The notes under the pieces are model-generated. The model saw only the letters and a list, made by a program, of their open reading frames with translations. It was not told the DNA's origin and did not search any database. A stretch of DNA of 64,000 bases from Callorhinchus milii. Its lineage: Eukaryota. Shown piece after piece: positions 2,861-63,551 of this stretch. The stretch lies in the NCBI RefSeq assembly GCF_018977255.1, contig NW_024705047.1, positions 1-64,000 on the forward strand, in the 5' to 3' direction. The translations under genes were made by a program, and so were the position numbers. Every line of letters starts with the position of its first letter. The first letter of the stretch is position 1.

Positions 2861-4177
2861 TCCACATTTTTGTATGGATGGATGTAAATATGCATACTCT
2901 GCCCATAACTGACACTGTATACATATACATAACCTGTCGAATTCCCCAAGGTTGTCTTCCTCCTGACAATACTTGCTACACCCCCAGACTGCAAGCTTCG
3001 CACGCATATAAAGTTACATGCAAATTACTGACCGTATTTTTTATCGGGTTTCTGCGATTGTGATTTTCCAGGTGCGATGGCACGTTTCACGACACAATGA
3101 TTATGCTGATATTTAAGGATGCTTACCGGCTATAATAACTAAGCAAGCAGCGGAGTCAAAAGTCAAAGTGTTTTCCTTCCACAATGAGCATTGAGGCATC
3201 GGTGTTCATTTCCCATATACAGCCCTGCAGAGCCAGTGATGGAAATTCCACATTCCTATGTTGGGGAAAACGTCGCCATAAGACAATGACTATTGACTTC
3301 CCCACACAAAGCGATATTAATTTTATCGACCGCAAGAGATATTCATATTTCCGACCCTAAACAAAGGTTTTAACTTGCAAACTTAAATTGTTGAGCCGCT
3401 TGCTCTGCTGCTCAGCCACATCGCTGGTTATTCTGATATCAGTTTCTCACAACTGTGTAAATTGTATTTATTGCTGTGTCCTCCTGCTTTGCTGTGTTTC
3501 TGGTACAACTAAAGTTCACTAGAACGTCTTTAAACGGCATGCAGTTCGCTTGACATTAGACTATCATGCCCTCTAATGTTTGCAACCTTACAATCAATAA
3601 CGCACATGCTGTTAGTCGCGTGATAATATAATTGATAATTCATTGAACGATGAAGATAATTATGTTGTGTAACCCCCACGCAAATGAATTGCTCCAATAA
3701 CATTTCACAGAGCACGTATTCAATCGACGGTAGCTATTTCTGTCGAAGTATAATTGTTCGGTAAATTCATAAACATTTCGACCTGGACGTTTTGAAGCGA
3801 AGATAAAATGACCGACGGCATATAACGAAATGGCGGTATTTTTGCAAAACGGACGACACGATTAGCACGGATCTCACGCTGTGCGATTTATTCGCTGGAT
3901 CGTCGTATAGCTGCATCCCGAGTCTTTTCCCCATCGTCGCCCCCTTCTCCACCTGAACTCTGATCCCATCTGTCCACCGCAGGAGACTGCAGCTGCCGAG
4001 ATGGCTACCTGCCTGACCCTGTCTACAGCCACCTTTGCGTGCGCAAGCAGTGGGAACTAAACAAGGGTGAGTCTCCCGCGACACGTGACACAAACTGCCC
4101 GCACCACCACCGCCGCCGCCACCACGACTTAAGTTGTGTACAAGATAAGAGCTGCGATGATTCGCCAAGTCAACATA

Positions 4178-4368
4178 TATATTCTTGGTTCTTTCGGTAA
4201 AGTCACGTAGAAGGGAAACAATAACATAATAAAATATAAAACAATAAAATTCTCACGACATTTCGATTTATTGTTTTATATTTTATTATTGTATTGTTTC
4301 CCTTCTACGTGACTTTACCGAAAGAACCAAGAATATGAATCCCTGCAGTCCCGAAAGCTTTAAATCAA
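4178..4368. mobile_element. Penelope-like pLTR inverted repeat, centrally truncated (hammerhead lost)
   Basis: Inverted arms ttcttggttctttcggtaaagtcacgtag / ctacgtgactttaccgaaagaaccaagaa plus the tail. TSD-like aagtcaacata/aagtcaaaata. Confidence 0.8.
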
Positions 4369-4729
4369 AAGTCAAAATAGCGTGTGCAATATTTTCGGAG
4401 GGGTGAGAGCTTGTGTAGAAAGCAAGATATACCAAATACGATTGTAGCATTATTACTCATCTCTCTCTAGCGATGAACATTCGTTTACATATTGTTTAAC
4501 ATTCACTGAACCATGCACCCCCCCTCCTTCCGCTGACTTTTCTCGGCCCTGCTTTTTGTGTTTAGTTTGTTGTCCTTCCCCGCATCTCGGATTAGCACGG
4601 TTGGTTACGTAGGGTGCAAAAGAAGTTCAACATACATCAAGTTCAACATGATCAGTCAGCTGCCGGACGATGTCTTCTCTACGCTGCGACAATCGCAACA
4701 ATGTTGCGATTGTCGCAGCGTAGGAAGAC

Positions 4730-4972
4730 TACCGAAAGAACCAAGAAGGGATTCATCTTCTTGGTTCTTTCGGTAAANNNNNNNNNNNNNNNNNNNNNNN
4801 NNNNNNNNNNNNNNNNNNNNNNNNNNNNNNNNNNNNNNNNNNNNNNNNNNNNNNNNNNNNNNNNNNNNNNNNNNNNNNNNNNNNNNNNNNNNNNNNNNNN
4901 NNNNNNNNNNNNNNNNNTTTACCGAAAGAACCAAGAAGATGAATCCCTGCAGTCACGAAAGCTTTAAATATA
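4730..4972. mobile_element. Penelope-like pLTR inverted repeat spanning an N gap
   Basis: The same arm ends lie on both sides of the N run 4778-4917. Confidence 0.7.
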
Positions 4973-5219
4973 AATGTTCCATCTAGTGTCTGTGTACGTA
5001 TTTGAACTTATTTCGCACCGTACTGTAGCCAACCGTGCTAATTGGAGATCAGGGAAGAACAAGAAACTAAACCCCAAAAAGCAGTTCTAGAGAAATTCGT
5101 TTTCAATTTAGATGTTACTACAGACGGGGTGGGGGGCCGAGAAAAGTCAGCAGAAGACGGGGTGGTGGGGGGCATGGCTCAGTGAATGTTAAACAAGATT
5201 TAGACTGAATGTTCCTTCC

Positions 5220-5603
5220 CTTTATTAATGCTACCTATCCCTCCTTTGATACTGCTAATCCTGCATAATGCACGGCATATATGACTTTAAACCCCTCGCC
5301 AAACCTCCTACGCATTTCACAAGTAGTACTAATCGCATATCTGCATTTCCCATAAATATGCTAAATTCCTCTTGATATGCAAATTATTTTGTCAAGACGC
5401 TCTTCGCCCTCCATCCCAGCTTAAATAGTCGCTCCAAGCCTGGGGCGTACCATTCAGACTCTGCCTTCTCGACAGACCTGTTCTCCACCTGAAGACGGCT
5501 GCTTGCGTTGTGGCCGAAACGTCGTGAGAATTATTTTATTATGTTTTATTTTTATTATTTTATTATTTTCCTTCTACGTGACTTTACGAAAGAACCAAGA
5601 AGA
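5220..5603 (+). mobile_element. Single-arm PLE pLTR with longer upstream sequence
   Basis: 3' part matches the family (cagactctg...cacctgaagacggc...ccaagaaga). The upstream ~230 bp is absent from the opposite foldback arm, so it is inferred to be part of the insertion. Left boundary approximate. Confidence 0.6.
5484..5528 (+). ncRNA. Minimal type I hammerhead ribozyme motif
   Basis: cac-CUGAAGA-c-GGCUGC(uugcguu)GUGGCC-GAAA-C-GUC-gug; predicted cleavage after 5523. Confidence 0.75.
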
Positions 5604-5716
5604 TGGAACGCTACAATCGTAGTTGGTATATCTTGCTATATACTCAAGCTCTCACCGCCTCTGAAAATATTGCACACGCATATTTTGACTTGGCGAATAA
5701 CCACAGCTCTTATCTT

Positions 5717-5947
5717 TTCTGGTTCTTTCGCTAAAGTCACGTAGAATGGAAATAATAAAATAATAAAAATAAAACATAATAAAATAATTCTCACGACGTT
5801 TCGACCACAACGCAAGCAGCCGCCCTCAGGTGGAGAGCAGGTCTGTCGAGTAGACAGAGTCTATTTTATTATTTCCATTCTACGTGACTTTACCGAAAGA
5901 ACCAAGAAGATGAATCCCGCAGTCACGAAAGCTTTAAATCGAAATTT
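5717..5947. mobile_element. Penelope-like pLTR inverted repeat (asymmetric)
   Basis: 12-bp TSD agctcttatctt at 5705-5716 and 5948-5959. The minus-strand hammerhead has a mutated core (CUGAGGG). Confidence 0.85.
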
Positions 5948-7077
5948 AGCTCTTATCTTGTACATAACTTAAGTCGGTGTCCATTCCCGAGTCTCGCTTG
6001 TGTACTGTACTAAACAGCATGCTTACAGTCTGAAGCTTTTGTGCACCGCGATAATCCAAACTTATGTTGATGCATGTATGATGATATTATTGTTGCACAC
6101 GGGTGACCTTTTCAAAATGTTTTGATGTCGATGTTTTATTTTATTTTATTAGGAATAATATTCAAGAGCGTTGTGTGGCTTCATTTAAACCGCTTATGTA
6201 GAGGCATTATAATTTTTTTCATCGTCAAGTTTTAATCCTAGGAGACACATGGCACATGTCAAAAAATATATAATAATTATAATTAAAAGATAGAATACAT
6301 TTTCATCCACTGTTGCACTGGCTTGTGACCTTTCGTAGAAAGCCTTCCACTGCTCGTGCAGTGACACCCGTGCAGTATTACATAGAGTTTACCCTTGACT
6401 GGTTGAATGAACATCCACACTTAAATCTTTCCTGTCCGTATGCATACTCTGCGAGATAGGAGGCCATTTCAGTCAAGCACAATGGAAGCAAATTGTCTGA
6501 TAAATTGCATTGTTGATGCATCAATTACTAGGGTTCATGTTCTACAAAATTCCATTCTGGTTTATATCCTCAAATTGTGTTGACAAGTGCATCACCGTTT
6601 GAATGAAATCCAATTTTTATCTCCATCCATTATGTATATGGAGTCTGTTCATTTGAAAATTAAATGGAAGGGTTTTTCTGAGGTATTTTAAACAAATCCG
6701 CACCCCCTATTTGCTCAGAAATGAGAAATGAATTTAACATCTTAATGAACTCTAGTTGGTTAAAAGGTTCAATTTAATCAGGAAAAATACGCCGTTTAAA
6801 AAACATTATTTTCACTTTATCTTCCAGCACAATTGACACTTATGCACAGCATTACAGATAATTCCTTGGCAGTGGGCACACGAAAAATAAAATTTCACCA
6901 CACTCATCATTGACCCGAACTAATGACATGCAACTATTCCACAGACTGATGTTTCAGGTAGCTTACCTTCCTTCTTTGAATATATTTATAGTTTTACAAA
7001 ACAGCGGTAACGATGCAAGTGCTGAATTTTATTTCCAATTTGATTCATGCATTTAAGATGCTGCCATATCTTTCTGA

Positions 7078-8500: not shown

Positions 8501-9467
8501 ACTCCCTGCGTGCCGAGATGAGGCTCTCCCTCTCTTTAAACAAGTTTTTTTTTTCTTCCGAATTCGTTTATTCTTATCTTCGGGTATCTTATTTTGCCAC
8601 CCAGTAATTTTTGTTTATTTTTGCTTCCCTTTCTCATTTTCATGCACGGCACTTGAGACGTGTGTGAAACGTGCCTTATAAGTGCACGCTATTATTGTTG
8701 CAGTGAAAAGCGAAGTGACAGCCATTTGGTACCTGTCAAGCAGCCTGACGTTGGTTACTATGAAAGTGGCTCGTGCATTTTTTCTGCATCGCATTTGCTG
8801 TATTTGTATGCAATGTGTATATATTATCTGCGACAATATTTCACAAGACACACAGTGGCGCATACAATAACGCTTATTACCGTATTTTCCCGCATATAGC
8901 CCGCATACGCATATACCCCGCAAAAATTACGTTTTGTGTGAAAACAAATTCAGATAGCCCACACCTCCATATAAACCGCATGCATTCATATATTTAACGT
9001 CGTTACCGCACGCAGCTTAATTCCATCATATTAATACAAAGTTTACATTTGTAATACATTCCACCATCAATTGTTAACAGTAAAATCATAGCGTGCACAA
9101 AGAAAACAAACTAACTAGAAACGAGTGAAATTTAAACAGTAAATAAGTAACAAAGTAAATATCCAATAAGTAAGTAACACATAACTGGTAGATAAGTAAG
9201 TAAGCGTACTGTTAGGCTTACCAGCATTCGACCCCATCATATTACAGCTACGGGTAGTTACCCCTGTACAGTTTTAGCACTGATAGATTGCGCACTGCGC
9301 AGACAATAGCGGCACTACGGGAACGCCATTGCCTCCTGGCAACAAAGCCATTGGAATTTTTCGATTTAAAGCTTTCGTGACTGCAGGGATTCATCTTCTT
9401 GGTTCTTTCGGTAAAGTCACGTAGAAGGGAAGTAATAAAATAATAAAAATAAAACATAATAAAATAA

Positions 9468-9516
9468 TTCTCACGACGTTTCGGCCACAACGCAAGCAGC
9501 CGTCCTCAGGTGAAGA
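9468..9516 (-). ncRNA. Minimal type I hammerhead ribozyme motif
   Basis: Reverse complement reads uucac-CUGAGGA-c-GGCUGC..GUGGCC-GAAAC-GUC-gugag. Confidence 0.75.
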
Positions 9517-9569
9517 CCAGGTCTGTCGGGGAGACAGCGTCGGAAGCGTCATGTCCCCGACAGACCTGG

Positions 9570-9618
9570 TCTTCACCTGAGGACGGCTGCTTGCGTTGTG
9601 GCCGAAACGTCGTGAGAA
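9570..9618 (+). ncRNA. Minimal type I hammerhead ribozyme motif
   Basis: CUGAGGA 9577-9583, GAAAC 9604-9608, GUC 9609-9611; stem I uucac/gugag. Confidence 0.75.
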
Positions 9619-11279
9619 TTATTTATTATGTTTTAATTTTATTATTTTATTACTTCCCTTCTACGTGACTTTACCGAAAGAACCAAGAAGATAAAGCCAT
9701 TGGAAGTTTGATACAAAGCTCATGGTCGACGACTGTATCGTGCTCAGCAAGTAGCAGCGGCTTAAGGGACTCAGCAATTATGATTCCACGTCTGGTAGAC
9801 GCTTGTTAAGGCCTTCCCATTGTGCAATCCATAGCCTCAGCTGAAACTTTCGCACCCCCCTACAGCCACTGAAAGTATTACGGTAAACGAAGTGCGCCCA
9901 CTTCAAACATTGTCGTTTCATTGTACAAACAATTGGAATCATTTAAAACGTGATAACATGCGCAATTTTAGTGTGAGTGGTTTATTCAGCAGTGCTTTAG
10001 TCAAAGGTAAGTGTTGCATAGTGGATAGTCCTACCATGAAAAATTAAACGGTGTTATGACATGTCACACGTGTAAAATATTTTTGGGATAGCCCGCACCT
10101 CCATACACCCCGCAGGGTCTTGTTTTGTTTCTTAAAGTAGTCTACCCCGCGGGTTATATGCGGGAAAATACGGTACAGCGTAATACGTTACAGAATAACA
10201 GCAATTATTTTTTTAAAAATATTAGAAGCCATTTTACAGAAGCTTTGACCTTGGCATACAGCTCGCTCATATACATTTTTATTTAGTTTTATATATTTAA
10301 AAGAGAGCTCAGCTGCCAGAGTGATTGCAATTGGGTAAGCGTTCATTTGCAAATCATAGGTCACACGCCATTGTGATGCACAGGACTGAGTCCTTGACAT
10401 TTGGCTCAGTTGATTTTAAACTAAAGTCATATTTTGTGAATCACTTTTGTGCAGACGAAATGTTACTGCGTGATTGGGCAGTGCCGCCGCGCCTCATATT
10501 ACCTTCACAGATTTCCGTTTAACTCTTGCGTCTGCAGATGATTTTATTTGTTTGGCCTGAATATGAATGGTGCAAGCGCGCAGCCTTGCGCTAGTTTTAG
10601 TTTTTTTGCGTAAATGTCACGTGGCGCGTGTGTAAACTGACGCCGTGAATTAAAATGACATCGGTGAAAACCCTGCGCCAAGGTTTATGCCGCCACGCGG
10701 GAACACCGTTTTTGTACGAGTCCATAAAAAAAAATATTATACTGGCGGTAGAAACACCGTAAGATCTTGTCTCGGCCTACAGGGTTATCAAAAAAAGATT
10801 TGGAAAAAAAATGTAGACACAGGCTATAGAGATGGGAAATGTAATGTGCCTTTGACAGTTTTATTCAGATCAATTAAAAGCTCCTTTGTTATAAACGCCG
10901 TCTTTTATTTTTAGCACGCAATAGCAATAGCCCCAATTTATCACTTTCAATTTCAAAAGTGAAAGATGTGGGTTCCAAGGTTGAAATGCGTTGCCGAAGG
11001 CCATTATTAAGCTGCTTTATGGTGCCTGGAAGCCAGATGTAAGAAACATTTAAGTTTGAGAGCTCTTTCCATACACAGCGGCAATGTCCACTGCCCCACC
11101 CTGAACGCCACACGTCCTTGTCATATCCTCATATGGGCCAGAATAGGTCACAGTGGCTCTGACTGTCCATTCACAGTGTTAGAATACGTGGTAAATAGGC
11201 AAAAGGTGCTGCCCTGCATTTAGATTATGCTCACATTATTGAGCATAATGTATGAACGACAATCGATCGGTTTAACACG

Positions 11280-11406
11280 TTTAACACGTAGGCTTTCGCG
11301 ACCAATATTATTCATAATAAAGGTTTTTTGGGTTAGATCGCGTAAGTATAAATGTGCCGTAACCCTCCACCGCCCGACACAGCCAGTAAGGTTTGTCACG
11401 TAAACA
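11280..11406 (+). mobile_element. Half copy of palindromic MITE family
   Basis: Matches arms at 35685-35930 and 36876-37186 (ttaa-c(a/g)cgtaggctttcgcga...gggttagatcgcgtaa...). Confidence 0.7.
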
Positions 11407-14400
11407 ACGCCCAATGAGTTTACTACTTCAGCCCACCGGTGGTTTGGAGAGTAAAATCACAACATTTACAATGTGATCAGCATGCAGCGTGTAGTGGAGT
11501 CAAATGTGGATAGTCCCGCATTTTCCGAGACATCTGGTCAGCGTGGAAGAGTAGGCCAAACGCCCTCTAGAGGGTGGAGGCCCTTTTCCCTGCAGTGGCG
11601 TGAGTGGGCATTTTCAGGGCTGCACCTTTACATTTTATTTGTGACTGTTGTTCGTTAAAATGTTAATATGTTGGAATAGCAATGCTCTTAAATCTCCACG
11701 ATTCCCAGAAGGGAAAAGGTGCCCCTCTATCGACCACGTGACAATACAAAGGATCGTAACTCAAACCAAACATTTAAAATTCCCTGCGAATATGTGACCA
11801 AACTACAGCAAAACCACAGCAACAACGATTAATGCCAACTGCAGAATTCCCAGCACAATGAACAAGTGTTCATATGGCTGGTATTTAAATAAATAAAAAT
11901 ATCCACGTGGCTTGCGGAATATTGTTAATTCTAGTCATTCTAAGTCACCGCTGGTCACAGAAATCCCACCAGGAATTTAATTTGCATCGGCTGGTGGTGG
12001 GGGGGGTGTGAGCGAGCCATTTTTTGAATTTGAATTCACGGTACACACTGGCGCTATGCAGACCACCGTGTACGGAGCCTCGTACCTTTGTACGAAATAA
12101 AAGGGCGAAGACAGAAGTGGAAAATGCATATGAATTTTTGGCCGATTATAATTGTATGGATTTTTTTTTGTTACGTGCCAGAGCCCCCAAGTAAGATTAT
12201 GGTGATTTATTCATGTGGCATCGGTGGAATAATGATAAAATGAGACGCAGGAAAAAAAAAAAAAAGTCCCACACCTTGGCTGTCTCTGGGCATTTAGGAA
12301 TGCGTGCAAATATGGAAGCCATTTGTCACTTGGATGACTGATGTGAGGTATGCAAAGGATCCCTTTTTGAATTAACCCCTTAGTTGAACTACCTTCGTAA
12401 TCATCATCATCATAATCATCAAATCAAAAGTGATTTCTTGCTCAAATAATCATTGAGTTAGGGCTTATCTATTATGCGTTCAACCCTGAGCCGTTGGTGG
12501 GAATTCCTCGTTCCTATGATGGGGGTGAGTTTATCCGGAGGGAGAAACACTGTTGTGGCCCCACAAAGTGGTTGATCGTTTTATCTACCCCAGAGGCATG
12601 ATGGGGTGAGTCAACTGCCAACCAGGATTTGAACTCTCGACCTTTTGACTGAGAGCTGCTCGCTCTACCGCACCCGAGCAAGTTTAAGGCCTATCCTTCC
12701 AACAGCGAAGTGAACAAGAAATTAAAGAGCTGCACTTTTACCTTGCTATTTGCATAGGCTATGATGTGTTTTATGAATATACTTGTGGGCCATAGGGCAA
12801 TGGAGGTTGCATCGAATTTTTTAAAATACTCTGTTCAGCTCAGGCCGACCAATGTATGGAGGTAATGTTCTTAAAACAGGGATGAAATTATAATTTGACG
12901 AGGCAGCTTTGCATTTGTTTATCCTGCAAGCAGTTTTGTATTTTGCAGCCGTGGTAATGCAGCTTGAAGCACAATCTAATTATTATGTAAATTCTGCTTT
13001 CTTTTGTAACAAAAATAATGCTAAAATACACGCAGAGCAATGCACAGTTCCTTGTGGCCTTTTTTGCGTCCGTTGGTTTGTCTGCATACCCTGTTCACTC
13101 TGCTTGCGTAAAACCCACGTGTTTAGACTGTCTCCACGTCCTTTGCTTATGCTGCCGTGCGTCTAGAAGTCTCCGCCAAAGTCTTCCCCCCTTACAAGAA
13201 GTAGCCCAGGGTGTGTGTGCGCGCGTGTGCCAGATCCGTCACCATGTCAAGTGGGATTCGTGCCATCCTCGACAGCTCCCTGTTGTTTTTTTTATTTTAG
13301 TTTTTTTCTATCCACAAATTCATTCCAAGTGTGCTGTCGGCATCGAATTACGAGATGAAGCCCGCTATTCGGAAATTGTCACGGAGCGGTCTATCACCCC
13401 GCCCCCCTGGCGCATTAGAGAATGGCCTGCGGAAGTAGACTTCAAGGAAATTGTTCTGAGATCTCTTACGTGACATTTTTTATCCACGTCCTAAGGGATA
13501 TTTTTCATTCTCAAGAATGGGATTTTTTTTGTCAATATTAAGTGAAGACCCAAAGTTCATGCAGTGGCTTTTTAATAAAAAAAGTATAATTACGAAGAGT
13601 ATCTCACAATGTCATAAGAGGTGGGAACTATATGTAAATCAGAATATGTATTTAGAATCAGAATATTTATTTAGATGCAGAGGAATCCGATGAGCTATTA
13701 AGCACAGACGCCCAGTAGTTTCACAGATGTCCAAGAGTATGCACATAATTGTCTTGAGTGGTAAAATATTAATGTTCCTCCGAAGACTTTGCAGATTTCC
13801 CATGACAGCCACCTCAAAATGAGCATGGCCCTAAGAAAACCAGCACAGGTGGGCAACTCGACTTGAGAACCCAGTTGAATCATGGATGGCTGAAATCCAG
13901 ATCTAAAGCCGTCACACTCAGCAGTGGCAGCTCAATTATCTGACCCATGCGCTATGCAGCCACAGGCCTCTGTGTTCTAATCTTATAAGTACGTGCGGCT
14001 GTGTGGCTCAGCGGAATAACACTCCCGCCCCTGCAGATGCAACGGGACCGCGCGGTTTGAGAATTCCAATATTTGGCACGGGGGCGAGCAAAAAGATACA
14101 CACTTGCCTGCGTGAGCCAGGAGGGCAGCTCACATGCAAAGAGTATTCTCAGCGTCTCGTCCCAGAGTCAAAAAGATGCACACCAATGCATCGGCTGCAA
14201 GGAACAGGTTGTTTTTACTCGCTCCGTTCGCACGGAACTTTAACGGAGAACAAAATCAACAGCTCCTGGCCCGTGACAAATATTCCTGTCTGGTCCAGCG
14301 GAGGGTGCTGCTGCTTTCTGAGTGCTGGAATGCAAAGCGATGTAGATATGTAAATTTTCGCAATTGGATACGATATCAAGTGTCACGACGGGACGATTAT

Positions 14401-15893
14401 CGCGATATCAGTTTGAACAGCTTTGTAACTGTGCTGCGCGTTTCCGTCGTGTTGTTTTTGTGCCTTTGCTGCAATGTCCAGCGCAGGCAAAGATTGATTC
14501 GAAGTTCTGCAGCTGCAATTCGCTCGATACCAAGGAAGCATGCAACGTTTGGCCAACGTTGTTGGCATGCGGTTGGCACTGTTAGATCCAACGCTCGCCC
14601 AGCGTTCCCCCCCCCCCCAACGACGTTCCATGTTTACTGGGTGCAAGCCTGCCATAAGTCTGTCTCATCATTACTATAGACAACCCTTATGATGCACGAT
14701 GAGGTACACACAAATCCGCTACGTAGTTTTATGAACCAAAAAGCAATGTTGCCGTAAAATATCTGTCGCTCTGTCAATTGATGTGATTTCATTCGTGTAT
14801 ATATGTATATTTTATAAATCGCTAATTTAAAGGAGAACATCTTCTGAATTACATCTTAGACCTTTTATTTTAACGCAAACACTCGCGACCATCCGCGCAT
14901 TTGCGTGGGTACACGGCCGTGGTGGAGGGTGGGTGGGGGAGGCATGGTGGCGTCACCTGGCTCATTCGGGCTGTGGAATTCAGTCGTTGTCATCGCAGAG
15001 ATGTGCACGGTGACGGCGCCACCGGGGCACTTGCCTGCGCGTGCGCCAGTCAGCCGGCCAGTGAGCAAAACTTTTTTGTTATTATAATATCGTGAGACTT
15101 GTGTGGTGCGAATGTGGTGGTCACACACACAACAAGGCCACGGGATCGATTGTAGGCTCAACTTCAAATTTAAATGTTAAAGTAAAAACCATGACCTCTC
15201 TTGGGCAACTCAACAATACTCAGAAGATGTAATATTTCATTTAAAAAAATAATGAAATGAACAACAACAATCATCATTTCAACTTGTTCTTTCAACACAG
15301 TATTCACTCGCGAAGAGAGACTCCAACTCAACGGTGCGAGGAGGAACCACAAACGACCACGCGGTGCGATTTGGACGGGCGATATGATTACCGTTCACCC
15401 AGTACGGCATATCGCGAAATATCCATGTCACGGCAACTCTGGATGATGCTAAATGTCCACGCAGTGTCTTGTTGCCGTGCTGTATGTTGGGATTAATGCA
15501 CAGTATACTAGTCGAGCGTTTTAAGGCAGCTGAACTTGAGCATGAAAAGGGACGTAGCAATGTGTCTCGGGAAGAAAGTTTCTAATCGGCGCGTACAACC
15601 TGCTCTGGCATATGGTTCATAAAAATAAAAACAACGGTCGTTAACAAATGGGTAGAAACCTCAAAAAGGTGTGCAAAGAGGCGTGGAGAGATGCATTGCT
15701 CGTAATTTAATTGAGGAGGCAGGGAGAGGAACACGTGGATTAGAGGACGCACCCAGGTTAAATGACATAATTCAAGCTGTCATTTTTCGATTTAAAGCTT
15801 TCGTGACTGCAGGGATTCATCTTCTTGGTTCTTTCGGTAAAGTCACGTAGAAGGGAAGTAATAAAATAATAAAAATAAAACATAATAAAACAA

Positions 15894-15942
15894 TTCTCAC
15901 GACGTTTCGGCCACAACGCAAGCAGCCGTCCTCAGGTGAAAA
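15894..15942 (-). ncRNA. Minimal type I hammerhead ribozyme motif
   Basis: Reverse complement of 16026-16074. Confidence 0.75.
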
Positions 15943-16025
15943 CCAGGTCCGTCGAGGCGACAGAGTCTGAATGAACAGAGCTCGTGTGCTGTTTCATTCA
16001 GACTCTGTCGCCTCGACGGACCTGG

Positions 16026-16074
16026 TTTTCACCTGAGGACGGCTGCTTGCGTTGTGGCCGAAACGTCGTGAGAA
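16026..16074 (+). ncRNA. Minimal type I hammerhead ribozyme motif
   Basis: uuuucac-CUGAGGA-c-GGCUGC(uugcguu)GUGGCC-GAAA-C-GUC-gugagaa; 7-bp stem I, 6-bp stem II. Confidence 0.8.
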
Positions 16075-16469
16075 TTGTTTTATTATGTTTTATTTTTATT
16101 ATTTTATTACTTCCCTTCTACGTGACTTTACCGAAAGAACCAAGAAGATCAAGCTGTCATGTTAAAGCGAGTGGGCTTGGGCAGGACGTGCCATCACGGG
16201 AGGGAAGGCGGCCGATTGGTCGAGACGGTTGACGGAGTGGCAGCCAAGGGATGGAACGTGTCACCGGGGAGAGAGAGAGGGGGAGTGTGCGTTGACCGAT
16301 GAGATGCAGCGAGGACATCGTCAGCTCATGTGCATGGTGCTGCGTGGTGATTTTGTTGCCGTATCGCGAGCGGTGGCGATGGCGACCTCACGTCACTCGA
16401 TGCAAGAATACATCTCCATTGGGTCCTGTTCATCCGTGAAATCCTTATTGGCAAAGCTGCGCTATACTT

Positions 16470-16997
16470 AGCTAATTCATTAACCCCATTGTCAAACCCA
16501 AGAAACCTCAGACGTCTATCTAATTGCCTTTTAACTATCACAAGAACAAGAATAGGAAAAGGTGACAGAGACTTTACCATTGCAGAAACGACGTTTTGGA
16601 AGGACCTTCTTTCCTCCCTTACCATGGTAAATCTTCCTTCAAAAAATGCCCCAAAGCAGAAGATTAATGCTGGATACAACTTAGTTTGCAAATCTGATTT
16701 GTAACTTTCATCGTTACCCGTGTATCTGTATTTCTATTTTAATGTGCAATGTTGTAGAGGGACTGTGTGTTGTTTTCTTGGTGTGGCCAGGGACTGTTTT
16801 TGTTGTTGTTTAGTTGACTTACCCAAGCTTGGGAATTGGTGTACTTATGCCATTTCAACTTATACACTTTAATTATTATGCATTTATTTTTAGCGATTAG
16901 CTTACCTTTCCTACACTTTGCACTCCCATCGTGTCTTGCGTCGTTTGTCATTAGCAACTTGCTGACCCGCCCCAGGATAAATAAATATTCTGATTGT
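16470..16997 (+). mobile_element. L2/Crack-like LINE 3' end (ORF2 C-terminus plus 3' UTR)
   Basis: Translation RTRIGKGDRDFTIAETTFWKDL..SL...PS...KQKI resembles CR1-group C-termini. A paralog lies at 31050-31450. Tail aaataaatattctgatt. Confidence 0.6.
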
Positions 16998-17690: not shown

Positions 17691-17997
17691 TTTTCGATTT
17701 AAAGCTTTCGTGACTGCAGGGATTCATCTTCTTGGTTCTTTCGGTAAAATCACGTAGAATGGAAACAATAAAAAATAATAAAATAAAACAATAAAATAAT
17801 TCTCACGACGTTTCGGCCACAATGCAAGCAGCCGTCATCAGGTGAAGACCAGGTCTGTCGGGGAGACCAGGTCTGACAGACCTGGTCTTCACCTGATGAC
17901 GGCTGATTGCGTTGTGGCTGAAACGTCGTGATAATTATTTTATTGTTTTATTTTTTATTGTTTCCCTTCTACGTGACTTTACCGAAAGAACCAAGAA
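17691..17997. mobile_element. Penelope-like pLTR palindrome with two hammerheads (CUGAUGA core)
   Basis: Inverted arms; TSD-like gattttgattttt/gatttggattttt. Hammerheads at 17800-17847 (-) and 17888-17931 (+). Confidence 0.85.
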
Positions 17998-18486: not shown

Positions 18487-18866
18487 CAGAGGTCGCAAAC
18501 GGGTTTTGATTCCTTAACCGTACCCGGCCACACCAGGGTCGCAAACGGGTATCCGTACCCGGCCGTACCTGTACCCTACCCGTACCCGGCCGGGTACGGG
18601 TAGGGTATGGGTATCGGGTATCTGATTGCGACCTCTGGGATGAAGCCATGTTGCAGGCGTGGTGGGTTGATTCTAGGAACTTTAATTTTGAGAAGAGACA
18701 AGACGTTGGGAAATGAGTGACAAACAGTTACTCACCAGTGACTCACGGCCTACCCCGTACCGGCCGCACCAGGGTCGCAAACGGGTACCCGTACCCGTAC
18801 CCGGCCGGGTACGGTAGCCGGGTATCGGGTAGGGTACGGGTATCGGGTACCCGGTTGCGACCTCTG
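18487..18866. mobile_element. hAT-type MITE (composite)
   Basis: TIR cagaggtcgcaa...ttgcgacctctg with a perfect 8-bp TSD ctatgaag (18479-18486 and 18867-18874). Many subterminal gtaccc/gggtac repeats and an extra internal terminus at 18637. Confidence 0.85.
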
Positions 18867-20131
18867 CTATGAAGCTCTTTTTGCACAGATGTCCACAGAT
18901 GGCCAAGAGAGTGTCAGTGCCTGGGACGCGTGTGAGATGACTCTGGCTCCTCCGGTTCTCCCCCCCCCCCGCCACATACTACACGCTCGGCAGCGGTATT
19001 TCCCAACTAGAAAATGTAAGATGCAGCCCTGCAATTACTTGCTCATGGCATTGCTGGCAGAAGGGGCCTTCGCTCGAGGCGTAGCTCTGGAGAGCTTATT
19101 TAGAGGGTATTTAGCCCACTCTTCCATGTTGCGCTGAAGCCTTGGAAGAGGTGTGCATAATCACATTGGCCACATTTCCCTGTTGAATATCAATCCCGAA
19201 ATTCAGTCTCGAGACTCCGTGAGGTTTTACTGGATATATAATTGGCATCATCGTCATCTTGCAAGTTCTAAAATCAGGTCAGCTGTTAATCTTGGAGGAA
19301 ATTAGTCAACGTATACAAGCTCTGTTGATAATTCCCCATTCATACGGATTCTAAAGATGCATCAATGATTTTCATCATTAATAAAAGCTGATGCTACAAT
19401 AAAGATAGCTGAACTAGCGTATCGATCGTGTTCCTTTAGGCAACACAGTCCAACAATGATACATAATTTAGCTTGGTTGCTTGTTAAAATAACTTCTTGC
19501 TATAAAGTGCTTACACTACACTTTGCATTCTGTTCCGTGTTTGTAACATCTACGTCCTATTCTTTTGTAATTAGTTTTTCTCTCTCTCTCTCGTTCTGTT
19601 TAAGTTTTGTTTGCTTTTATTTTCCTGCGTGGCGATATAAACGGCTGCAGGGCCCGTGCCACTTCCACTTAGCGTGTTCCTTGCGAGCGTTGTCATCTTC
19701 TGAGTTCTCCAACGAGATCACAGTAATCAGGCCCAGCTTGCGGAAGGTAACGTTGGAACGGCTAACGGGGGGGTGGGGGGGGTGACGACACCAAGGAACG
19801 TCAGCGACACAACAGCGGAATGTTCCGCAGCGTTCGCTATCCCTCTTCGCACCTCCGGTGGGTATTTGGCCTACTCTTCCACGCTGGCCATAATGTCTCG
19901 GAAGAGGTGGGTGTCCCCACACTTTACCCCACCACATTCCACCTGCCGATTGCCCATTAACACACATTTCTATCTGCGAGCGAACAACACGGAGATCAAA
20001 TTGATTCGGCGACTTCTATATTGCAAGGCCAGTGTGGTAAACGTTACACCACGGGCAGGATAATATATTTTTTTTAAAGTACTGAAAATAACTATCAATA
20101 CTTCTCGTAAGCAGTATTGTTATTCGTATTA

Positions 20132-21735
20132 CACTATGTAACACAATTTTTGTTCCTGGGTAGTAAGTGTTATTTAGTAATTTCTCATGCCTAAAAAGTT
20201 TAGAAAATGGCTATTATTCCCCACAAACTTTGCTTTTGTGACCAGGACAGTGATATTTAGAAATTTACCGATTTTCAATGAAAAAACGGGTGAATTTGTG
20301 TCTTTTCGTTCACATAAAGTCAGAAAAAATCACATATGAATCAAAATGAACATGTATTCATAGTAGAGTGATACAAAAATTACGACAGAAGATTTAGAAG
20401 TGAGTAGTTTTTCGAGATTTACAATTATACTATAAATCACTTTCACGAAACAGCCCCCAAATTAGTCTCCCATCATGTTCTCGTTATACTGTCCTTGGTA
20501 GCGGCGTTCAAAGTCCAGTATATCCTGGTAGAAGCGCTCGCCTTGCTCCTCCGAGTACGCTCCCATGTTCTCCTTGAATTTATCAAGATGAGCATCAAGG
20601 ATATGGACTTTGAGGGACATCCTACAGCCCATTGTGCCGTAGTTCTTCACCAGAGTCTCAACCAGCTCACATAGTTTTCGACCTTGTGATTGCCCAGGAA
20701 GCCAAAACCACTGCGACAAAGCTGTCCCAAGTTGCTTTCTCCTTACTAGTGAGCTTCTTGGGGAATTCATTGCACTCCAGGATCTTCTTTATCTGTGGTC
20801 CGACAAAGACACTGGCTTTGACCTTTGCCTCAGACAACTTAGGGAAGAAGTCTTGAAGGTACTTGAAGGCTGCCGACTCCTTATCTACAGCTCTGACAAA
20901 TTGTTTCATAAGGCCCAATTTGATGTGCGGTGGTGGCATCAGCACCTTCCGGGGGTCCACCAGTGGCTCCCACTTGACGTTGTTCCTCCCCACAGAGAAC
21001 TCGGTCTGCTGTGGCCAGTCCCGCCTGTACCATCCTACAAAAATACATTTATTTCACCCATGACTAATGTGTAAGAGATTCTCGCAACAATTTTCATATA
21101 TGATATATATTTTTTCAATAACATAAAAAATTGTAAAACATTTAAAAATAAAAAACTTTTACAAATTAAATGTTTTTAACAAATTTTACAACATAAAATT
21201 CTAAGCAATAATTGTCCATCTTACCTTCCAGAGTTATTTTGCATTGCTCGCAGGTGAAATGAGGTGCCCAGGGTTTGTCTTGATCCTCGACAGGCATGCC
21301 GAAATATGCCTTGTAGGCCTCACACATCTTAGCAGATGCTTCCACAGAGTACTTTTTCACTCTTGTTTCATAAATTGGCCGCAGACATAGCAAAATTCGT
21401 CTGCCGGATGTTTGCAGCCTCTTGATGCCATCTCAGGTAAATGCAGATTTGTATCCACTTAGGCAGCTGGAACTAAACTGAACTGGTGTGCTTAAGGCCC
21501 CTGCATTTATACTACTATTTATATTACTGGAAAGTTCTAGAATGTTCTAGAAGTTTCTCCAAGTTTACTCAGCACTGAATCTATCTGGAATGTTCTGGAA
21601 AATTGGTAAATTTCAAAATATCACTGTCCTGGTCACAAAAGAAAAGTTTGTCGGGAATAATAGCCAGTTTGTGTACTTTTGAGGCATAAGCAATTAGGAT
21701 ATAACACTACTCAGGAACAAAAAAAAATGTTACAC
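20132..21735 (-). mobile_element. Chapaev3-type (CMC superfamily) DNA transposon, internally deleted
   Basis: ~150-bp TIRs starting cactatgtaac; flanking TTA (right tip appears eroded). Transposase remnants inside. Confidence 0.85.
20440..21431 (-). pseudogene. Chapaev3 transposase pseudogene (frameshifted, intron-containing, core deleted)
   Basis: N-terminal Cys motif MASRGCKHPADEFCYVCGQF...YKAYFG...QDKPWAPHFTCEQC. GT..AG intron at ~21224-21036. C-terminal PP.HIKLGLMKQFV...FPKLSEAK...GCRMSLKVHILDAHLD.F.ENMGAYSEEQGERF.QDI..FERRYQG. Confidence 0.85.
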
Positions 21736-24700
21736 TTATTATTGTATATTGAAAACTAAATGCTTTAAAACTTTTTTACGTTTAGTTTGTTGTCCTTCCC
21801 CGCACCTCTGATGAGCACGGTAGGCTACGTATTGCGCGAAAGAATTTCAACATGCATACATACATACGTACATGCGTTGTTAATAATAATACAAAAAACC
21901 TTTGGTCGATGCACTTCCTGTTGAAGGCCTCCCCATGCCATGTCAGTCACGGGTGCTGTTTGACCATACTTCACCACAATGGTCAATGCAAGTTTGGTGA
22001 ATGGGGTACCTAGAACCGGTTCAGATATCATTTGCCACTGATGTTAGCTGTGGCGGGGAATTCAATTCAGGTTGCTGAGTTTTGTAGTGTGGTTACGCTA
22101 ACCGCTTTTTTCCACCTCCGCACGCAATTCTACACGGCGTCGCAAAGCCAGAGATCTGGTGGTGAAAATGAATCATGAAAACCCGGCGAGACTTTTTCTG
22201 GCAAGCAAAATAAATTATTACGTATCTCTGTGTTTGCAGTTTTATTCGCGGACAACAAGTTTAATGAAATACACACCAATCTTGACAGTTGATAAGAAAA
22301 TAATGCAAGCGTCAGAGATATGCTGTGTTTTTTTTTAAGTTACAGGGGCACCACTGCTTCCTAGAGATTTTTGTTTTATCTGGCGGCATTATTTACTTCA
22401 AGCCCTGCCAAGTCACCGCTTGCCTCTTCTCCCCACGCACCTCCCTACCTCCCCGATTCTTGCTTGGAACATTTCGCGCCCCTCCCTCTGTAGCTCCACG
22501 CTGCATTAACAGATACCTATCATCAACCACCCAGTAGTTGTTGTGGGGAAGGGCGGCGGTTTTAACATCACGCTGCTGGTCGCGGAGATAGTTGTAGCCA
22601 TCGCGCCTGTGATTAATGCGCTTGTCACGGCCAATAGGACCCCTCACAACATTACACGGACGCTGCAATTTCATCTTGGCCGGTGTGGCCCATGCCTTGT
22701 GCGTTTCCAGCCACCCGGCTAAAGGAATGACAGATATACCGTTCCACGGGCTGTTTATCCGGCCCACGCAATAGGCGCGAGCGTTGTTATTTACCCACTC
22801 CGTTTGTTTGTTCGTTTATGCGTGCATGCAAACTTCTTAAAATCGTTGCCAATTATCGCCACTGCAGCGGTTTTTATTTCGCCTCCTCCTCTTCCTGGGA
22901 TATTGTATAGAGGAGGACTCCCATTAACCGCTGCGATATTGCCCGTGACTTGAAATATCCTGTTGCCCGAGACTCCATTCTTCCTATCACCTGCAGTTAT
23001 CTGTAGATTTCCCCACATACCTTAAGGAAGGCATCCTATTATCCGCAACCATCTTGCGAGTAAGAAGAGTTTATGGACGAAAATGTAGAGGATAATACGC
23101 GATTATCCACTATTTCTTCCCACGGTTAAGTGGAGTAATTTTGCGGATGTCCCTGGCGGGTGACAGGGTCTGTGATACTGGTTCTTAGCATCACCATGGA
23201 TAAAAGGAGCTCTCCTGGATTTAGTATTTTTTTTATTTCACATTTTCACTTAAGTTTAATGTCTGAATTTCGGAATTTGAAATGGCAATACTTCTCTTCC
23301 TTTTTTAATATTCTCAAAAACTATTACGGAGCCGTATTTCACGTTGGAAATGCGTAATGAAAAACCCTGCTGTAAAGAGAAAAAAAATGTAAACACGATC
23401 GGGGGATAAGAAAAGAGCTCAGCATAAAATGAGAAATATAATCGCTAAATAATCTGTAAAGCGTTTGCATTTGCTGGCATAGCCCTGTCTCGATTCAAAA
23501 GCCTTTATGTGTGTGATTGGTTTTTAGTTAAGGTGAGGAATGTCAAGTTTAGTGGGCATACCGACAGCTCATAGATTAATTTTCTTGTCATGCACGGTTC
23601 ACCATCATTTTGGCACCTTTCCTGCAAGACCCTTCCCCAAGCGACTTTGGGCACACATCTTACCAAGGATCACTCTGCCAATTCTGCCTACGTGCTAATG
23701 TAATGCTCATAACCTGTCCTCAAATCATCTAACCTTAATTGCTTTCCTACATCTTTATTACATCAGCTGGTACCCATAATTCCCTATGCACCCACTTGGC
23801 AGTAAAACAAGTTTATGGTGACAATTAAATGTCATATTTTCTCCGCTGCTGATGTATTATACATACACAGTAATTGAAGCTGGCAGTGTGTGTGTGTGTG
23901 GGTGCACAATATTCGACTTTTCTCGATACTTATCATATATGGAGCCATTTTCAGTAGTTCTCCATTTTCTGTACAATGCAATTGCCTAAAGGCCGAGCGT
24001 TTTAGCGAAATGCTTTCTCTGAAGGGAGCCTGCGATGCAAGTCGTATGCCAGGCGTAACTTTGGCCGCATCCAAGTGAGTCAAACGCCAAAAAAGCATTC
24101 GACCACTGCCTCTCACTCGTGCGTAACCTCCGTGCATTTTAAAACGATTCCAGCTCACAATGTGCCTTCCCCTGGGAGCAGGAAGAAAGTAATGAAATAA
24201 GAAAAACAGAATTGTTACCCGTGAACAATTGCGCGCAACGTGCGCTGGTTGCGCGCACTTATGTCCGTCGTAAGACCCATAGACCTGCACGTATGCCCAT
24301 AGACCCGCATAGAGACCCATAAACTCACGTAACATACACTTACACATTTACATATATGCATACAACACGCTGCCTGTGACTAATTGAACTTATGCGTGCG
24401 TGATCTCATCACCTTTCAGAAGCTAAGCTGTTTGTAGCCTGGCTAGCGCTCGGATGAGGGAGACAGTCGATGAATGCATGGTGATTTTGGCTTGGAATGT
24501 GAGGTGTCTCAAATAAGATAGGATCGCAAAGGATGCTCAGTTCTCTCAGTGTGGAACTTTGAATGACTCCCCCTCGTATGAGTGAAGTTCTCTCCAGAAA
24601 CTATGACTGTCCACGACGAGCCAAACACTCGTCAATGAAATTGGCCAAAACTTTCCGATGCAGCACGCTCCTTCAACTTAGTCTTGAAACTCAGCGAGCC

Positions 24701-26198: not shown

Positions 26199-26470
26199 GG
26201 GGGGAGCGGTAGTGTAGCGGTCAGCGCTTTGCGCTACGAACCTGGTGATCCGGGTTGGATTGCCGCTCACGGCCAACACCGGTGAACCGTTTCTGGGCCT
26301 CTACTAGATAGGCTCAGCCTCGAATGAGTACCTGGTGAGATGTGTAAACATCGCCACTGGGGAGGCAAAGGCAGCCGAGCGTGATGTTGGCCACCCAGCC
26401 CCTCGTGTACCGTGCCGGCCTTAATAGGTGCTCGCTAACAGTCTGTTGAGGATATACGGCTTCATCGTTT
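26199..26470 (+). mobile_element. tRNA-derived SINE with conserved central (Deu/Nin-like) domain
   Basis: Head agtgtagcggtcagcgc...gggttggattgcc; core aatgagtacctgg...ggcaaaggcagccgagcgtgatgttggccacc. A second copy lies at 62737-62893. Confidence 0.65.
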
Positions 26471-26982: not shown

Positions 26983-28409
26983 TACTACACTATACACTAC
27001 ACTATACACTACTATACACTACTACACTCTACACTACACTATACACTACTATACACTACTACACTCTACACTACACTATACACTACTATACACTACTACA
27101 CTCTACACTACACTATACACTACTATACACTACTACACTCTACACTATACACTACTATACACTACTACACTCTACACTACACTATACACTACTATACACT
27201 ACTACACTCTACACTATACACTACTATACACTACTACACTCTACACTACACTATACACTACTATACACTACTACACTCTACACTACACTATACACTACTA
27301 TACACTACTACACTCTACACTACACTATACACTACTATACACTACTACACTCTACACTACACTATACACTACTATACACTATACACTCTACACTATACAC
27401 TACTATACACTACTACACTCTACACTACACTATACACTACTATACACTACTACACTCTACACTACACTATACACTACTATACACTACTACACTCTACACT
27501 ACACTATACACTACTATACACTACTACACTCTACACTACACTATACACTACTATACACTACACTCTACACTACACTATACACTACTATACACTACTACAC
27601 TCTACACTACACTATACACTACTATACACTACTACACTCTACACTACACTATACACTACTATACACTACTACACTCTACACTACACTATACACTACTATA
27701 CACTACTACACTATACACTACACTATACACTACTATACACTACTACACTCTACACTACACTATACACTACTATACACTACTACACTCTACACTACACTAT
27801 ACACTACTATACCACTACTACACTCTACACTACACTATACACTACTATACACTACTACCTACTATACACTACACTATACACTACTATACACTACTACACT
27901 CTACACTACACTATACACTACTATACACTACTACACTCTACACTACACTATACACTACTATACACTACTACACTCTACACTACACTATACACTACTATAC
28001 ACTACTACACTCTACACTACACTATACACTACTATACACTACTACACTCTACACTACACTATACACTACTATACACTACTACACTCTACACTACACTATA
28101 CACTACTACACACTACTACACTACTACACTATACACTACACTACTACACTATAACACTACTACACTATACACTACTACACTATACACTACTATACACTAC
28201 TACACTCTACACTACACTATACACTACTATACACTACTACACTCTACACTACACTATACACTACTATACACTACTACACTCTACACTACACTATACACTA
28301 CTATACACTACTACACTCTACACTACACTATACACTACTATACACTACTACACTCTACACTACACTATACACTACTATACACTACTACACTCTACACTAC
28401 ACTATACAC
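26983..28409. repeat. G-free minisatellite, 37-bp main unit
   Basis: Unit acactct-acact-acactat-acactactat-acactact repeated over ~1.4 kb, with shorter variants. Confidence 0.95.
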
Positions 28410-31049: not shown

Positions 31050-31450
31050 CACATCGTAAATCTTCCTTCAACCAATATCCTGAAGCAAAAGATTAGTGCT
31101 GGATTCAACTGCATTCGCAAACGTGATTTGTAACTTTCATCCTCACCCGTGTATCGATATTTCAATTTTAACGTTTCATTTTACTAAGGGACTATTTTGG
31201 TATTGTTGTCTTGGTGTGGTCTGGGACTGCTGTTGTTTTGCTGCCTTACCCATTGGTGTACTTATGTAATATCAACTTATACACTTTATCTCCGTTACGT
31301 ATTTATTTTTCGAAATTTGCTTACCTCTCCCAAACTGTGCACGCCTATCGTTGCTTGTGTTGTTTATTGTTGCTGTAGATGTATGACCCGTCACTACTGG
31401 ACATCTGTGAAAAAAGAGCTTCACGGCTTTTCGGAGATTCCGATTCTGTT
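31050..31450 (+). mobile_element. L2/Crack-like LINE 3' end, paralog of 16620-16990
   Basis: Shares gtaaatcttccttcaa...aagca.aagatta.tgctggat.caac...tgatttgtaactttcatc. Tail ggacatctgtg.aaaaagagcttca..gct...gattccgattc also occurs inverted at ~13640-13740 and around 18437-18910. Confidence 0.7.
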
Positions 31451-31978: not shown

Positions 31979-32255
31979 TCTTCTTGGTTCTTTCGGTAAA
32001 GTCACGTAGAAGGAAAATAATAAAATAAATAAAATAAAATATAATAAAATAAGTCTCACGACGTTTCAGGTCTGTCAAGTAGACTCTGTCTACTTGACAG
32101 ACCTGTTCTCCACCTGAGGACGGCTGCTTGCGTTGTGGCCAAAACGTCGTGAGAATTATTTTATTATGTTTTATTTTTATTATTTTCCTTCTACGTGACT
32201 TTACCGAAAGAACCAAGAAGATGAATCCCTGCAGTCACGAAAGCTTTAAATCGAA
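31979..32255. mobile_element. Penelope-like pLTR palindrome (tail on right)
   Basis: 12-bp TSD atgttggtttca at 31967-31978 and 32256-32267. The hammerhead at ~32110-32155 has GAAA>AAAA; the left arm is internally deleted. Confidence 0.9.
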
Positions 32256-33203: not shown

Positions 33204-33414
33204 CTTGATTTGAAGCTTTCGTGACTGCAGGAATCCATACTTTTTGGTTCTTTCGGTAAAGTCACGTAGGTATAAAATACATAAATCACGACGTTTCGGG
33301 CGCAACACAAGCGTCCGTCTTTTCCACCTGATGATGGACGCTTGTGTTGCGCCCGAAACGTCGTGATTTATTATTTTATACCTACGTGACTTTACCGAAA
33401 GAACCAAAGAGTAT
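33204..33414. mobile_element. Penelope-like pLTR palindrome, second subfamily
   Basis: TSD agtaacagtaat/agtaatagtaat; tail cttgatttgaagctttcgtgactgcagg. Confidence 0.85.
33325..33366 (+). ncRNA. Minimal type I hammerhead ribozyme motif
   Basis: cac-CUGAUGA-u-GGACGC(uuguguu)GCGCCC-GAAA-C-GUC-gug. Confidence 0.7.
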
Positions 33415-35684: not shown

Positions 35685-35930
35685 CATTAACCATAATAGA
35701 GTTTTTTTTTTAGGTTATATTGTGAAAATATAAATATGTCGTTAAACATGCTACCACCCGACACAGCCAATTAGTAAGGGTTGTCGTGTAAACAAAACAT
35801 GCCAAAACATGCCACGTGACAAACCTTACTTATTGGCTGTGTCGAGTGGTAGCAGGTTTAACGGCGCATTTGTATTTCCGAAATATAACCCAAAAAAAAA
35901 CCTATTTTATGGATAATATTGTGTTAAACC
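35685..35930. mobile_element. Palindromic MITE (diverged copy)
   Basis: Inverted arms cgacacagccaattagtaagg / ccttacttattggctgtgtcg; related to 11280 and 36876. Confidence 0.7.
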
Positions 35931-37801: not shown

Positions 37802-37922
37802 CTAGATTTGAAGCTTTCGTGACTGCAAGGATTCATACTCTTAGTTCTTTCGGTAAAGTCACGTAGGTAAAAATGAAATTAAAATTAATAAATAATAAAT
37901 AAAAAATCACGACGTTTCGGAG
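37802..37922 (-). mobile_element. PLE pLTR arm (second subfamily) cut by an N gap
   Basis: ctagatttgaagctttcgtgactgca...aaatcacgacgtttcggag followed by N. Confidence 0.8.
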
Positions 37923-61708: not shown

Positions 61709-61843
61709 CTTGATTCGAAGCTTTCGTGACTGCAGGAATCCATACTCTTTGGTTCTTCGGTAAAGTCACGTAGTTAGAAATAAAATAATATAAAACAAAT
61801 CACGACGTTTCGATCAGGCAAAAAAAATAATCAAAGAGTACGT
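61709..61843. mobile_element. PLE pLTR (second subfamily) with right arm largely deleted
   Basis: Left arm with tail; residual caaagagta right end; TSD caaaacaat at 61700-61708 and 61844-61852. Confidence 0.75.
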
Positions 61844-62730: not shown

Positions 62731-62736
62731 CAAAAA

Positions 62737-62893
62737 TTAGTACCTGGTGTGGTGTATAAACATCGCCACTGGGAGACAAAGATGGCCAGGCGTGGTGCTG
62801 GCCACCCATCCCCTCTTGTGCTGTTCCAGCCTGAATAGGTGCTCGCTAACAGAACATCCCCCAACAGTCTGTTAAAGGCTTCATGACGGTTTT
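62737..62893 (+). mobile_element. SINE core fragment, paralog of 26320-26470
   Basis: agtacctggtg...taaacatcgccactggg...ggccaccca...aataggtgctcgctaacag. Confidence 0.75.
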
Positions 62894-63220: not shown

Positions 63221-63551
63221 TTCTTAGTTTTTTCGGTAAAGTCACGTAGGTAAAAAGTAAAATAAAATAAAAATCACGACGTTTCGGAGGCAACACAAGC
63301 TTCCGTCTTCAGGTGGTACCGTTACAGCCACGACAGCTGTATCAAGTAAATGAGAGATTGCAGGAGCTACCAATCTCTCATTTACTTGATACAGCTGTCG
63401 TGGCTGTGACGGTAACACCTGAAGACGGAAGCTTGTGTTGCCTCCGAAACGTCGTGATTTTTATTTTATTTTACTTTTTACCTACGTGACTTTACCGAAA
63501 AAACCTAAGAATATGAGTCATTGCAGTCACGAAAGCTTCAAATCTAGAATT
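63221..63551. mobile_element. Penelope-like pLTR palindrome, second subfamily, two hammerheads
   Basis: 14-bp TSD aacgcatgtacgta at 63207-63220 and 63552-63565. Hammerheads at 63274-63315 (-) and 63416-63457 (+). Confidence 0.9.
63416..63457 (+). ncRNA. Minimal type I hammerhead ribozyme motif
   Basis: cac-CUGAAGA-c-GGAAGC(uuguguu)GCCUCC-GAAA-C-GUC-gug. Confidence 0.75.

Follow-up and report, generated by a model that had tools for sequence, protein, structure and literature searches.

The dense family of short palindromic insertions in the window, the 64,000-nucleotide stretch of Callorhinchus milii DNA analysed here, probably represents pairs of 5'-truncated Penelope/Poseidon-type pLTR ends lying head to head, each pair formed separately by double-nick copying of one uncleaved RNA. 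The anatomy of the copies, their target-site duplications (TSDs), the one-sided tail, the copy-specific centres, the crossing of the predicted ribozyme cut site and the clustering of 5' ends near an Inr-like site make up the observed part of this reading. The family is mostly an ordinary case of a known pattern, truncated head-to-head ends of Penelope-like elements (PLEs) with minimal hammerheads, and not a new ribozyme system.

Anatomy of the insertion at 15784-16148

The insertion at 15784-16148, the coordinates of which re-examination reproduced exactly as the sequence-only reading had given them, has two arms of 160 nt each that are 99% complementary in a self-comparison. It is flanked by a 12-bp TSD, TCAAGCTGTCAT, with a left copy at 15772-15783 and a right copy at 16149-16160. 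Arm alignment defines the left arm (15820..15975, minus strand) as a pLTR end running outward from an Inr-like TCATTC (15974-15969), and the right arm (15993..16148, plus strand) as a pLTR end without a tail, with the Inr-like TCATTC at 15994-15999. Between them, a comparison of the arms places the copy-specific junction of the two 5' ends at 15976..15992.

A 36-nt PLE 'tail' is present on the left arm only (15784..15819, minus strand; arm alignment). Folding gives a terminal stem-loop, CGUGAC..GUCACG around an A/C-rich loop, at 15802..15848 on the same strand. Together with the A at 15820, the tail encodes M-N-P-C-S-H-E-S-F-K-S-K, a frame that is possibly the start of an ORF.

Both arms hold a minimal type I hammerhead, with strict-pattern cores at 16033-16067 on the plus strand and 15901-15935 on the minus strand. 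The left-arm motif, located by the core scan, spans 15898..15938 (minus strand), with a predicted cut between 15901 and 15900. The right-arm motif, supported by the core scan and by folding, spans 16030..16070 (plus strand), with a predicted cut after 16067, and is made up of stem I CAC/GUG, CUGAGGA, an extra C, a 6-bp stem II and GAAAC-GUC.

Family members, target sites and empty sites

The sequence-only reading had listed about 12 related insertions, and self-comparison found family sequence at all 12 loci, about 3.1 kb in total (a hand sum of the listed coordinates) within about 40 kb of non-random sequence. It had also described the complete ones as inverted repeats of about 200-370 bp with TSDs of 9-14 bp. 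Eight of the 12 are complete and two-armed, 191-365 bp long and bounded by TSDs of 11-14 bp; the other four are one-armed or interrupted by N. The TSDs of the eight two-armed insertions score 9-15, against a best score of 9, reached twice, among 300 random pairs; the TSD tests covered the loci other than 37802 and 61709.

Besides the insertion described above, the tail lies on the left in 9357..9692 (both cores intact, 13-bp TSD; TSD comparison and core scan), in 17691..17997 (both cores intact, right-arm stem II damaged, 13-bp TSD with one mismatch; TSD comparison, folding and core scan) and in 33204..33414 (a second subfamily with one intact core and a 12-bp TSD with one mismatch; TSD comparison and core scan). 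It lies on the right in 4178..4368 (no hammerhead core, 11-bp TSD with one mismatch), 5717..5947 (left core mutated, 12-bp TSD), 31979..32255 (a mutated core in the right arm and none in the left, 12-bp TSD; TSD comparison and arm alignment) and 63221..63551 (a third subfamily with both cores intact and a 14-bp TSD; TSD comparison and core scan).

At 4730..4972, recognised by self-comparison, the tail is on the right and the centre consists of 140 N; a TSD was looked for at this locus and none was found. Arm alignment identified a tailed arm interrupted by a run of 30 N at 37802..37922 and a single tailed arm that ends just 3' of stem II at 61709..61812, both on the minus strand. The locus previously placed at 5220 does contain family sequence, but its start had been misplaced: the insertion is one-armed and untailed and occupies 5235..5606 on the plus strand. 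Its pLTR reaches further upstream, with an Inr-like A at 5452 preceded by TTAAATA at 5421, and its hammerhead lies at 5486-5526. Its 8-bp TSD scores at chance level, but an empty site for it is present in the window.

Empty sites confirm all three insertions that could be examined in this way, namely 4178 (in the inverted duplicate of the host), 5717 and 5235-5606. In each case, taking out the insertion together with one copy of its TSD leaves inverted host-repeat halves that align without a break.

The host element itself (4125-5978 of the window) has long inverted halves at 4125-4560 and 5130-5978, parts of which recur at 21598-21860. It holds at least three, and probably four, PLE insertions. 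A 58-nt near-perfect hairpin at 4672-4729, unrelated to the PLE family, immediately precedes the 4730 locus.

One-sided tails and copy-specific centres

We aligned 20 arms in sense orientation, with their 3' ends pointing outward and their 5' ends meeting at the centre. In all eight two-armed insertions exactly one arm is tailed, by an extra 31-41 nt (about 36 nt). Measured past the stem start, tailed ends extend 61-67 nt and untailed ends 25-30 nt, the latter terminating within the A/C-rich loop of the terminal stem-loop. The tail closes the stem CGUGAC/GUCACG round this loop in five of the six tailed ends that were folded. From the predicted cut site to the short end, the distance is 70-81 nt in the main subfamily and 52-57 nt in the other two.

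The tail translates as M-(N/D/S)-(P/S/H)-C-S-H-E-S-F-K-S in 10 of 11 copies in register, a reading that suggests a possible ORF start. An ATG in frame with C-S-H-E-S-F is kept in the tail of three subfamilies. A test for coding selection on 10 tails counted 4 synonymous and 7 non-synonymous alleles, with no clear sign either way.

The centres differ in all eight two-armed insertions, which are therefore separate truncated insertions and not copies of a palindromic master. Arms of one insertion often have copy-specific bases in common: the two arms of 15784 show 0 differences in 121 positions and those of 9357 show 1 in 107, compared with 6-14 differences between these arms and other long arms. 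Seven of 12 arms matched their own partner best (with one tie; the 15784 arms had two candidates only). The 17691 arms differ at 6 of 99 positions. In three of the eight insertions (4178, 5717 and 33204), the untailed arm is longer toward the centre and the tailed arm is longer outward, and neither contains the other.

Comparison with Penelope-like elements

Origin from PLEs had been proposed from the sequence alone, and the family's features point the same way: hammerhead, one-sided tail, inverted pLTR layout and short TSD are all present. As in EN+ PLEs (Penelope/Poseidon), we found a minimal type I hammerhead in the pLTR, a tail of 30-40 bp at one end, 5'-truncated head-to-head copies with a short TSD, and a stem-loop resembling the RT start of the Poseidon element PAc, the last a motif match made by eye without an alignment score. 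Published PLE insertions are described as having head-to-head inverted pLTRs, a tail of about 31-40 bp at one end and TSDs of about 8-10 bp (PMC3846280, PMC8557442). The truncated EN+ insertions in these accounts share the inverted pLTRs and the one-sided tail with the family, and further likenesses are the TATA and Inr-like motifs reported in the pLTR and the ORF start within the pLTR or tail. Short TSDs occur in both, of 11-14 bp here and about 8-10 bp in those reports. The difference is that just two pLTR ends remain here (191-365 bp), densely packed.

For PAc, from Anolis carolinensis, both target strands are reported to be cut and extended, in vitro on sense RNA, with uncleaved RNA as the main RT substrate (PMC11167929). 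[quoted passage not shown] RNA past the tail, to ORF +172, is required (PMC11167929). By eye, the PAc hairpin in Fig. S1 of that report has CCGAAAG, AUCCC and GAAAGC in common with the family, whereas the stem reads CAUGGCC/GGCCAUG in PAc and CGUGAC/GUCACG here. Also by eye, the hammerhead in both precedes a stem-loop whose loop is A/C-rich, copies end at this loop and some 35 nt beyond it, and H-E-S codons occupy an equivalent place. The distance from cut to short end is 85-92 nt in PAc and 70-81 nt in the main subfamily here. The ORF of PAc is described as starting in hammerhead stem II; in the family, the corresponding frame is closed by a stop after the core, and a candidate ATG is found instead at the tail start.

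The minimal hammerheads of metazoan PLEs (PMC4209133) resemble those of the family in the full core, the extra base between positions 9 and 10.1, G10.1-C11.1, the palindromic 15.2-16.2 and the long stem II. Stem I is only 3 bp in the putative ribozymes here, compared with 4-5 bp in the S. mansoni families of the same report. Animal non-LTR retrozymes (bioRxiv 10.64898/2026.07.22.740005) are likewise ORF-less, carry a type I hammerhead and have a proposed PLE ancestry, but they are described as head-to-tail tandem repeats, whereas the present copies are dispersed head-to-head pairs with TSDs. No head-to-tail tandem array of the hammerhead unit was found in the window.

A promoter-like site and the 5' limit of the arms

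The one-armed copy at 5235-5606 retains 215 nt of additional upstream pLTR sequence, in which TTAAATA lies 31 nt before the Inr-like A at 5452. This TATA/Inr-like match is not significant alone, as 33 of 100 shuffles yield one. Ten of 16 arms end at -8 to +21 relative to this A, and the TATA-like site is included in none of the 16. All 10 arms that reach +22 stop inside the following 30 nt, for which the earlier truncation rate predicts 9% each. The probability of such clustering is 7e-7 when six insertions are counted and 3e-4 at a tripled truncation rate, with the +22 cut-off and the 30-nt window picked post hoc, after the data had been seen; the 63221 arm ends enter this tally as projected, not aligned, positions. 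The predicted cut site is spanned by 14 of the 16 arms and is the starting point of none, which argues that the template RNA was uncleaved.

The simplest reading of the 5' limit is run-off at the 5' end of an RNA started in the pLTR. Alternatively, RT could have been stalled by a hairpin near 5460-5480.

Contigs of four sequencing runs, matched to 5228-5612, indicate that the upstream pLTR at 5241-5450 is multi-copy, native and joined to the arm; these contigs have no cover at 5531-5612, where the repeat was skipped, they show no ends of single molecules, and their summed depth does not equal copy number. No ORF was found in the short contigs of the four runs that match 5228-5612. The 5236-5605 sequence is present in sequencing runs of three organisms from several studies. 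A 579-nt contig from a PacBio RNA library holds a similar head-to-head pair, its presence as a contig not being equivalent to transcription.

The upstream pLTR of other family copies steps back by about 112 nt, a tandem sub-repeat corresponding to 5243-5354. This segment contains several ATGCAAAT-like motifs and is possibly an enhancer array. The Penelope promoter of D. virilis is reported to be internal and TATA-less (PMC2377424), so the stubs might still be transcribed.

Hammerhead cores and predicted folding

The strict core CTGANGA..GAAACGTC occurs 10 times in the window, compared with a mean of 0.01 in 100 shuffles. At the level of sequence, the family does appear to carry the minimal type I hammerhead with a palindromic ACGU that had been described, with an extra nucleotide after A9. 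The claim of a hammerhead ribozyme on each strand was not confirmed: two intact cores are present in just four of the eight two-armed insertions (9357, 15784, 17691 and 63221), one in 33204 and none in three, namely 4178, 5717 (A9 changed, other arm too short) and 31979 (G12 changed, other arm without a core). With eight different centres in eight insertions and two intact cores in four, the picture of a palindromic, ORF-less family that offers a ribozyme from either strand is not upheld. A check against Rfam did not recover the motif, with 0 families at the gathering score and no hammerhead model up to E=10. The matches within that range were generic hairpin (miRNA) models below threshold and were rejected.

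In single arms, the predicted probability of stem II is 0.65-1.0 in four of the five folded and 0.03 in 63221, and stem I is weak, at 0.45 or less. In all four whole insertions folded, the predicted probabilities of stems I and II are 0.000, consistent with the earlier suggestion that the full hairpin would compete with the ribozyme fold. Read-through RNA of either strand always has the antisense arm transcribed before its sense hammerhead, and the opposed hammerheads are predicted to be sequestered in the hairpin of such an RNA. When two cores were co-folded, the hammerhead dimer was not the minimum-energy structure. Minimal hammerheads are reported to need dimers, to cleave slowly and to perform poorly even when dimerised (PMC4209133). 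Dual minimal hammerheads on opposite strands, 100-700 bp apart and probably derived from truncated PLEs, were reported in 2014 (PMC4209133). We infer that the pairing of opposed hammerheads is incidental to the length of the copies, both motifs being present in one insertion whenever both copies happened to extend past the core.

Arms end or skip directly 3' of hammerhead stem II at 4265, 32067 and 61812, as if RT had paused there. A splice-donor candidate coinciding with the cut site was absent from the other subfamilies and was dropped.

Search for an autonomous partner

In agreement with the sequence-only reading, no RT or GIY-YIG domain was found in the window when its 97 stop-to-stop frames with a length of 88 aa or more, outside the satellite at 27-28.5 kb, were compared with Pfam. 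Three weak Pfam matches in the window all fell under the curated cut-offs. Pattern scans of viral contigs gave 0 and 0 matches. The one pattern match in a metagenome scan (L001) lies between the pgk and rpe genes of a bacterium and was rejected as fortuitous. A protein search with the tail frame returned no candidate, and two further matches to this frame, both repetitive unrelated proteins, were rejected.

Origin of the head-to-head pairs

In the course of events that we favour, the element protein would nick both target strands with a stagger of 11-14 bp, and one uncleaved sense RNA would be copied from both nicks. Priming would occur at two points on the RNA, one in the loop and one at the tail end, separated by about 36 nt. 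The template RNA would start at the pLTR promoter, copying would run off after at most about 190 nt, and joining of the two cDNA ends would create the head-to-head centre. The resulting stubs would be dead ends. More tentatively, the stubs may be the footprint of PLE inverted-repeat formation itself, in which a protein dimer would prime both nicked strands on one uncleaved, promoter-started sense RNA, using the two start sites that bound the tail, with run-off at the 5' end of this RNA. This two-nick, one-RNA model was not found stated in the literature searched, a coverage that excluded most subscription papers.

Several points bear against this origin. Later deletions are common in palindromes, and the asymmetry of the centres could stem from them. 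The likeness of the arms could reflect gene conversion, and this likeness is not general. The TATA/Inr-like match lacks significance by itself, the spacing from cut to short end is only 52-57 nt in two of the three subfamilies, and an internal promoter like that of D. virilis Penelope might allow the stubs to be transcribed. No RT/GIY-YIG ORF is linked to the pLTR in the window, in the short run contigs or in the protein searches.

The same PLE origin could be combined with a different route to the second arm, fold-back self-priming on a single cDNA or antisense RNA, the mechanism put forward by Arkhipova et al. 2013 (PMC3846280), with the asymmetry of the centre arising by later deletion. The near-identical arms of 15784, 9357 and 63221 fit this route, as do the junctions of 31979 and 17691, which sit on small natural hairpins. 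We consider it unlikely, however. Where neither arm contains the other, as in three of the eight insertions, fold-back on one template needs an extra deletion or jump, of which a later deletion is possible, and PAc is reported to use sense RNA for the extension of both target strands in vitro (PMC11167929).

Also improbable is a template supplied by a SINE-like master that lacks an ORF, spans only about 190 nt from Inr to tail and has its promoter inside; a PLE protein would mobilise it in trans, and palindromes would again form at each insertion. Such a master would suit the capping of the arms near the Inr, the lack of an ORF in the window, the internal promoter reported for D. virilis Penelope (PMC2377424) and the non-autonomous PLE derivatives described elsewhere (PMC8557442; bioRxiv 10.64898/2026.07.22.740005). 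Yet the contigs of four runs show the upstream pLTR at 5241-5450 in multiple copies and contiguous with the arm, and longer sources therefore exist. Moreover, the tails of three subfamilies retain an ATG that shares the reading frame of C-S-H-E-S-F, and, by analogy with PAc, the RNA would probably have to extend to ORF +172, a region absent from the stubs (PMC11167929).

A MITE-like palindromic element that moves as a unit and retains a functional ribozyme on each strand is very improbable, for although two cores are intact in four of eight insertions and one PacBio RNA library contig contains a head-to-head pair of putative transcription, the centres differ in 8 of 8, the tail makes the ends asymmetric, unlike terminal inverted repeats and unlike a MITE or fold-back DNA transposon, four of eight lack two cores, the predicted stem probabilities are 0.000 in whole insertions, and even dimers of minimal hammerheads are reported to be poor cutters (PMC4209133).

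Sequence context in the window

The earlier estimate of about 40 kb of non-random sequence was borne out; about 38.0-61.5 kb looks statistically random. Over 37953 to about 61600 (about 23.5 kb), the dinucleotide odds are near 1, homopolymers and repeats are almost absent, and scores under a Markov model of the flanks are negative. This segment directly follows a run of 30 N and looks like filler or scrambled sequence. The observed/expected ratio of CpG in the window is 0.6-1.07, which is high for a jawed vertebrate.

Several other repeats were observed. A second, unrelated inverted-repeat (MITE-like) family with arms of about 70-100 nt occurs at 35686-35917, 36874-37189 and 11279-11471. A satellite of period 37, with about 39 copies of TACAC/TATAC units, occupies 26983-28409, and a palindromic repeat rich in GGGTAC/GTACCC is present in two copies at 18518-18885. 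Dispersed direct repeats, 75-83% identical and unclassified, pair 16623-16946 with 31052-31365 and 26323-26441 with 62735-62852.

Implications for PLE biology

As a ribozyme system the family carries little weight, since a 2014 study had already described PLE ends with minimal hammerheads, among them pairs on opposite strands (PMC4209133). More is to be learned from the anatomy of these young, intact copies: with their one-sided tails, unique junctions, private bases in common and promoter-like 5' limit, they make the formation of PLE inverted repeats testable through a tally of copies within a single genome. If true, the two-nick, one-RNA model would replace the antisense self-priming model. 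Under that model, since the start hairpin follows the promoter by only 150-190 nt, mini-palindromes of capped size would be scattered through the genome by an active element. The density of about 12 loci per 40 kb suggests that the family provides the host with many perfect hairpins of 100-160 bp, and also with many assembly gaps.
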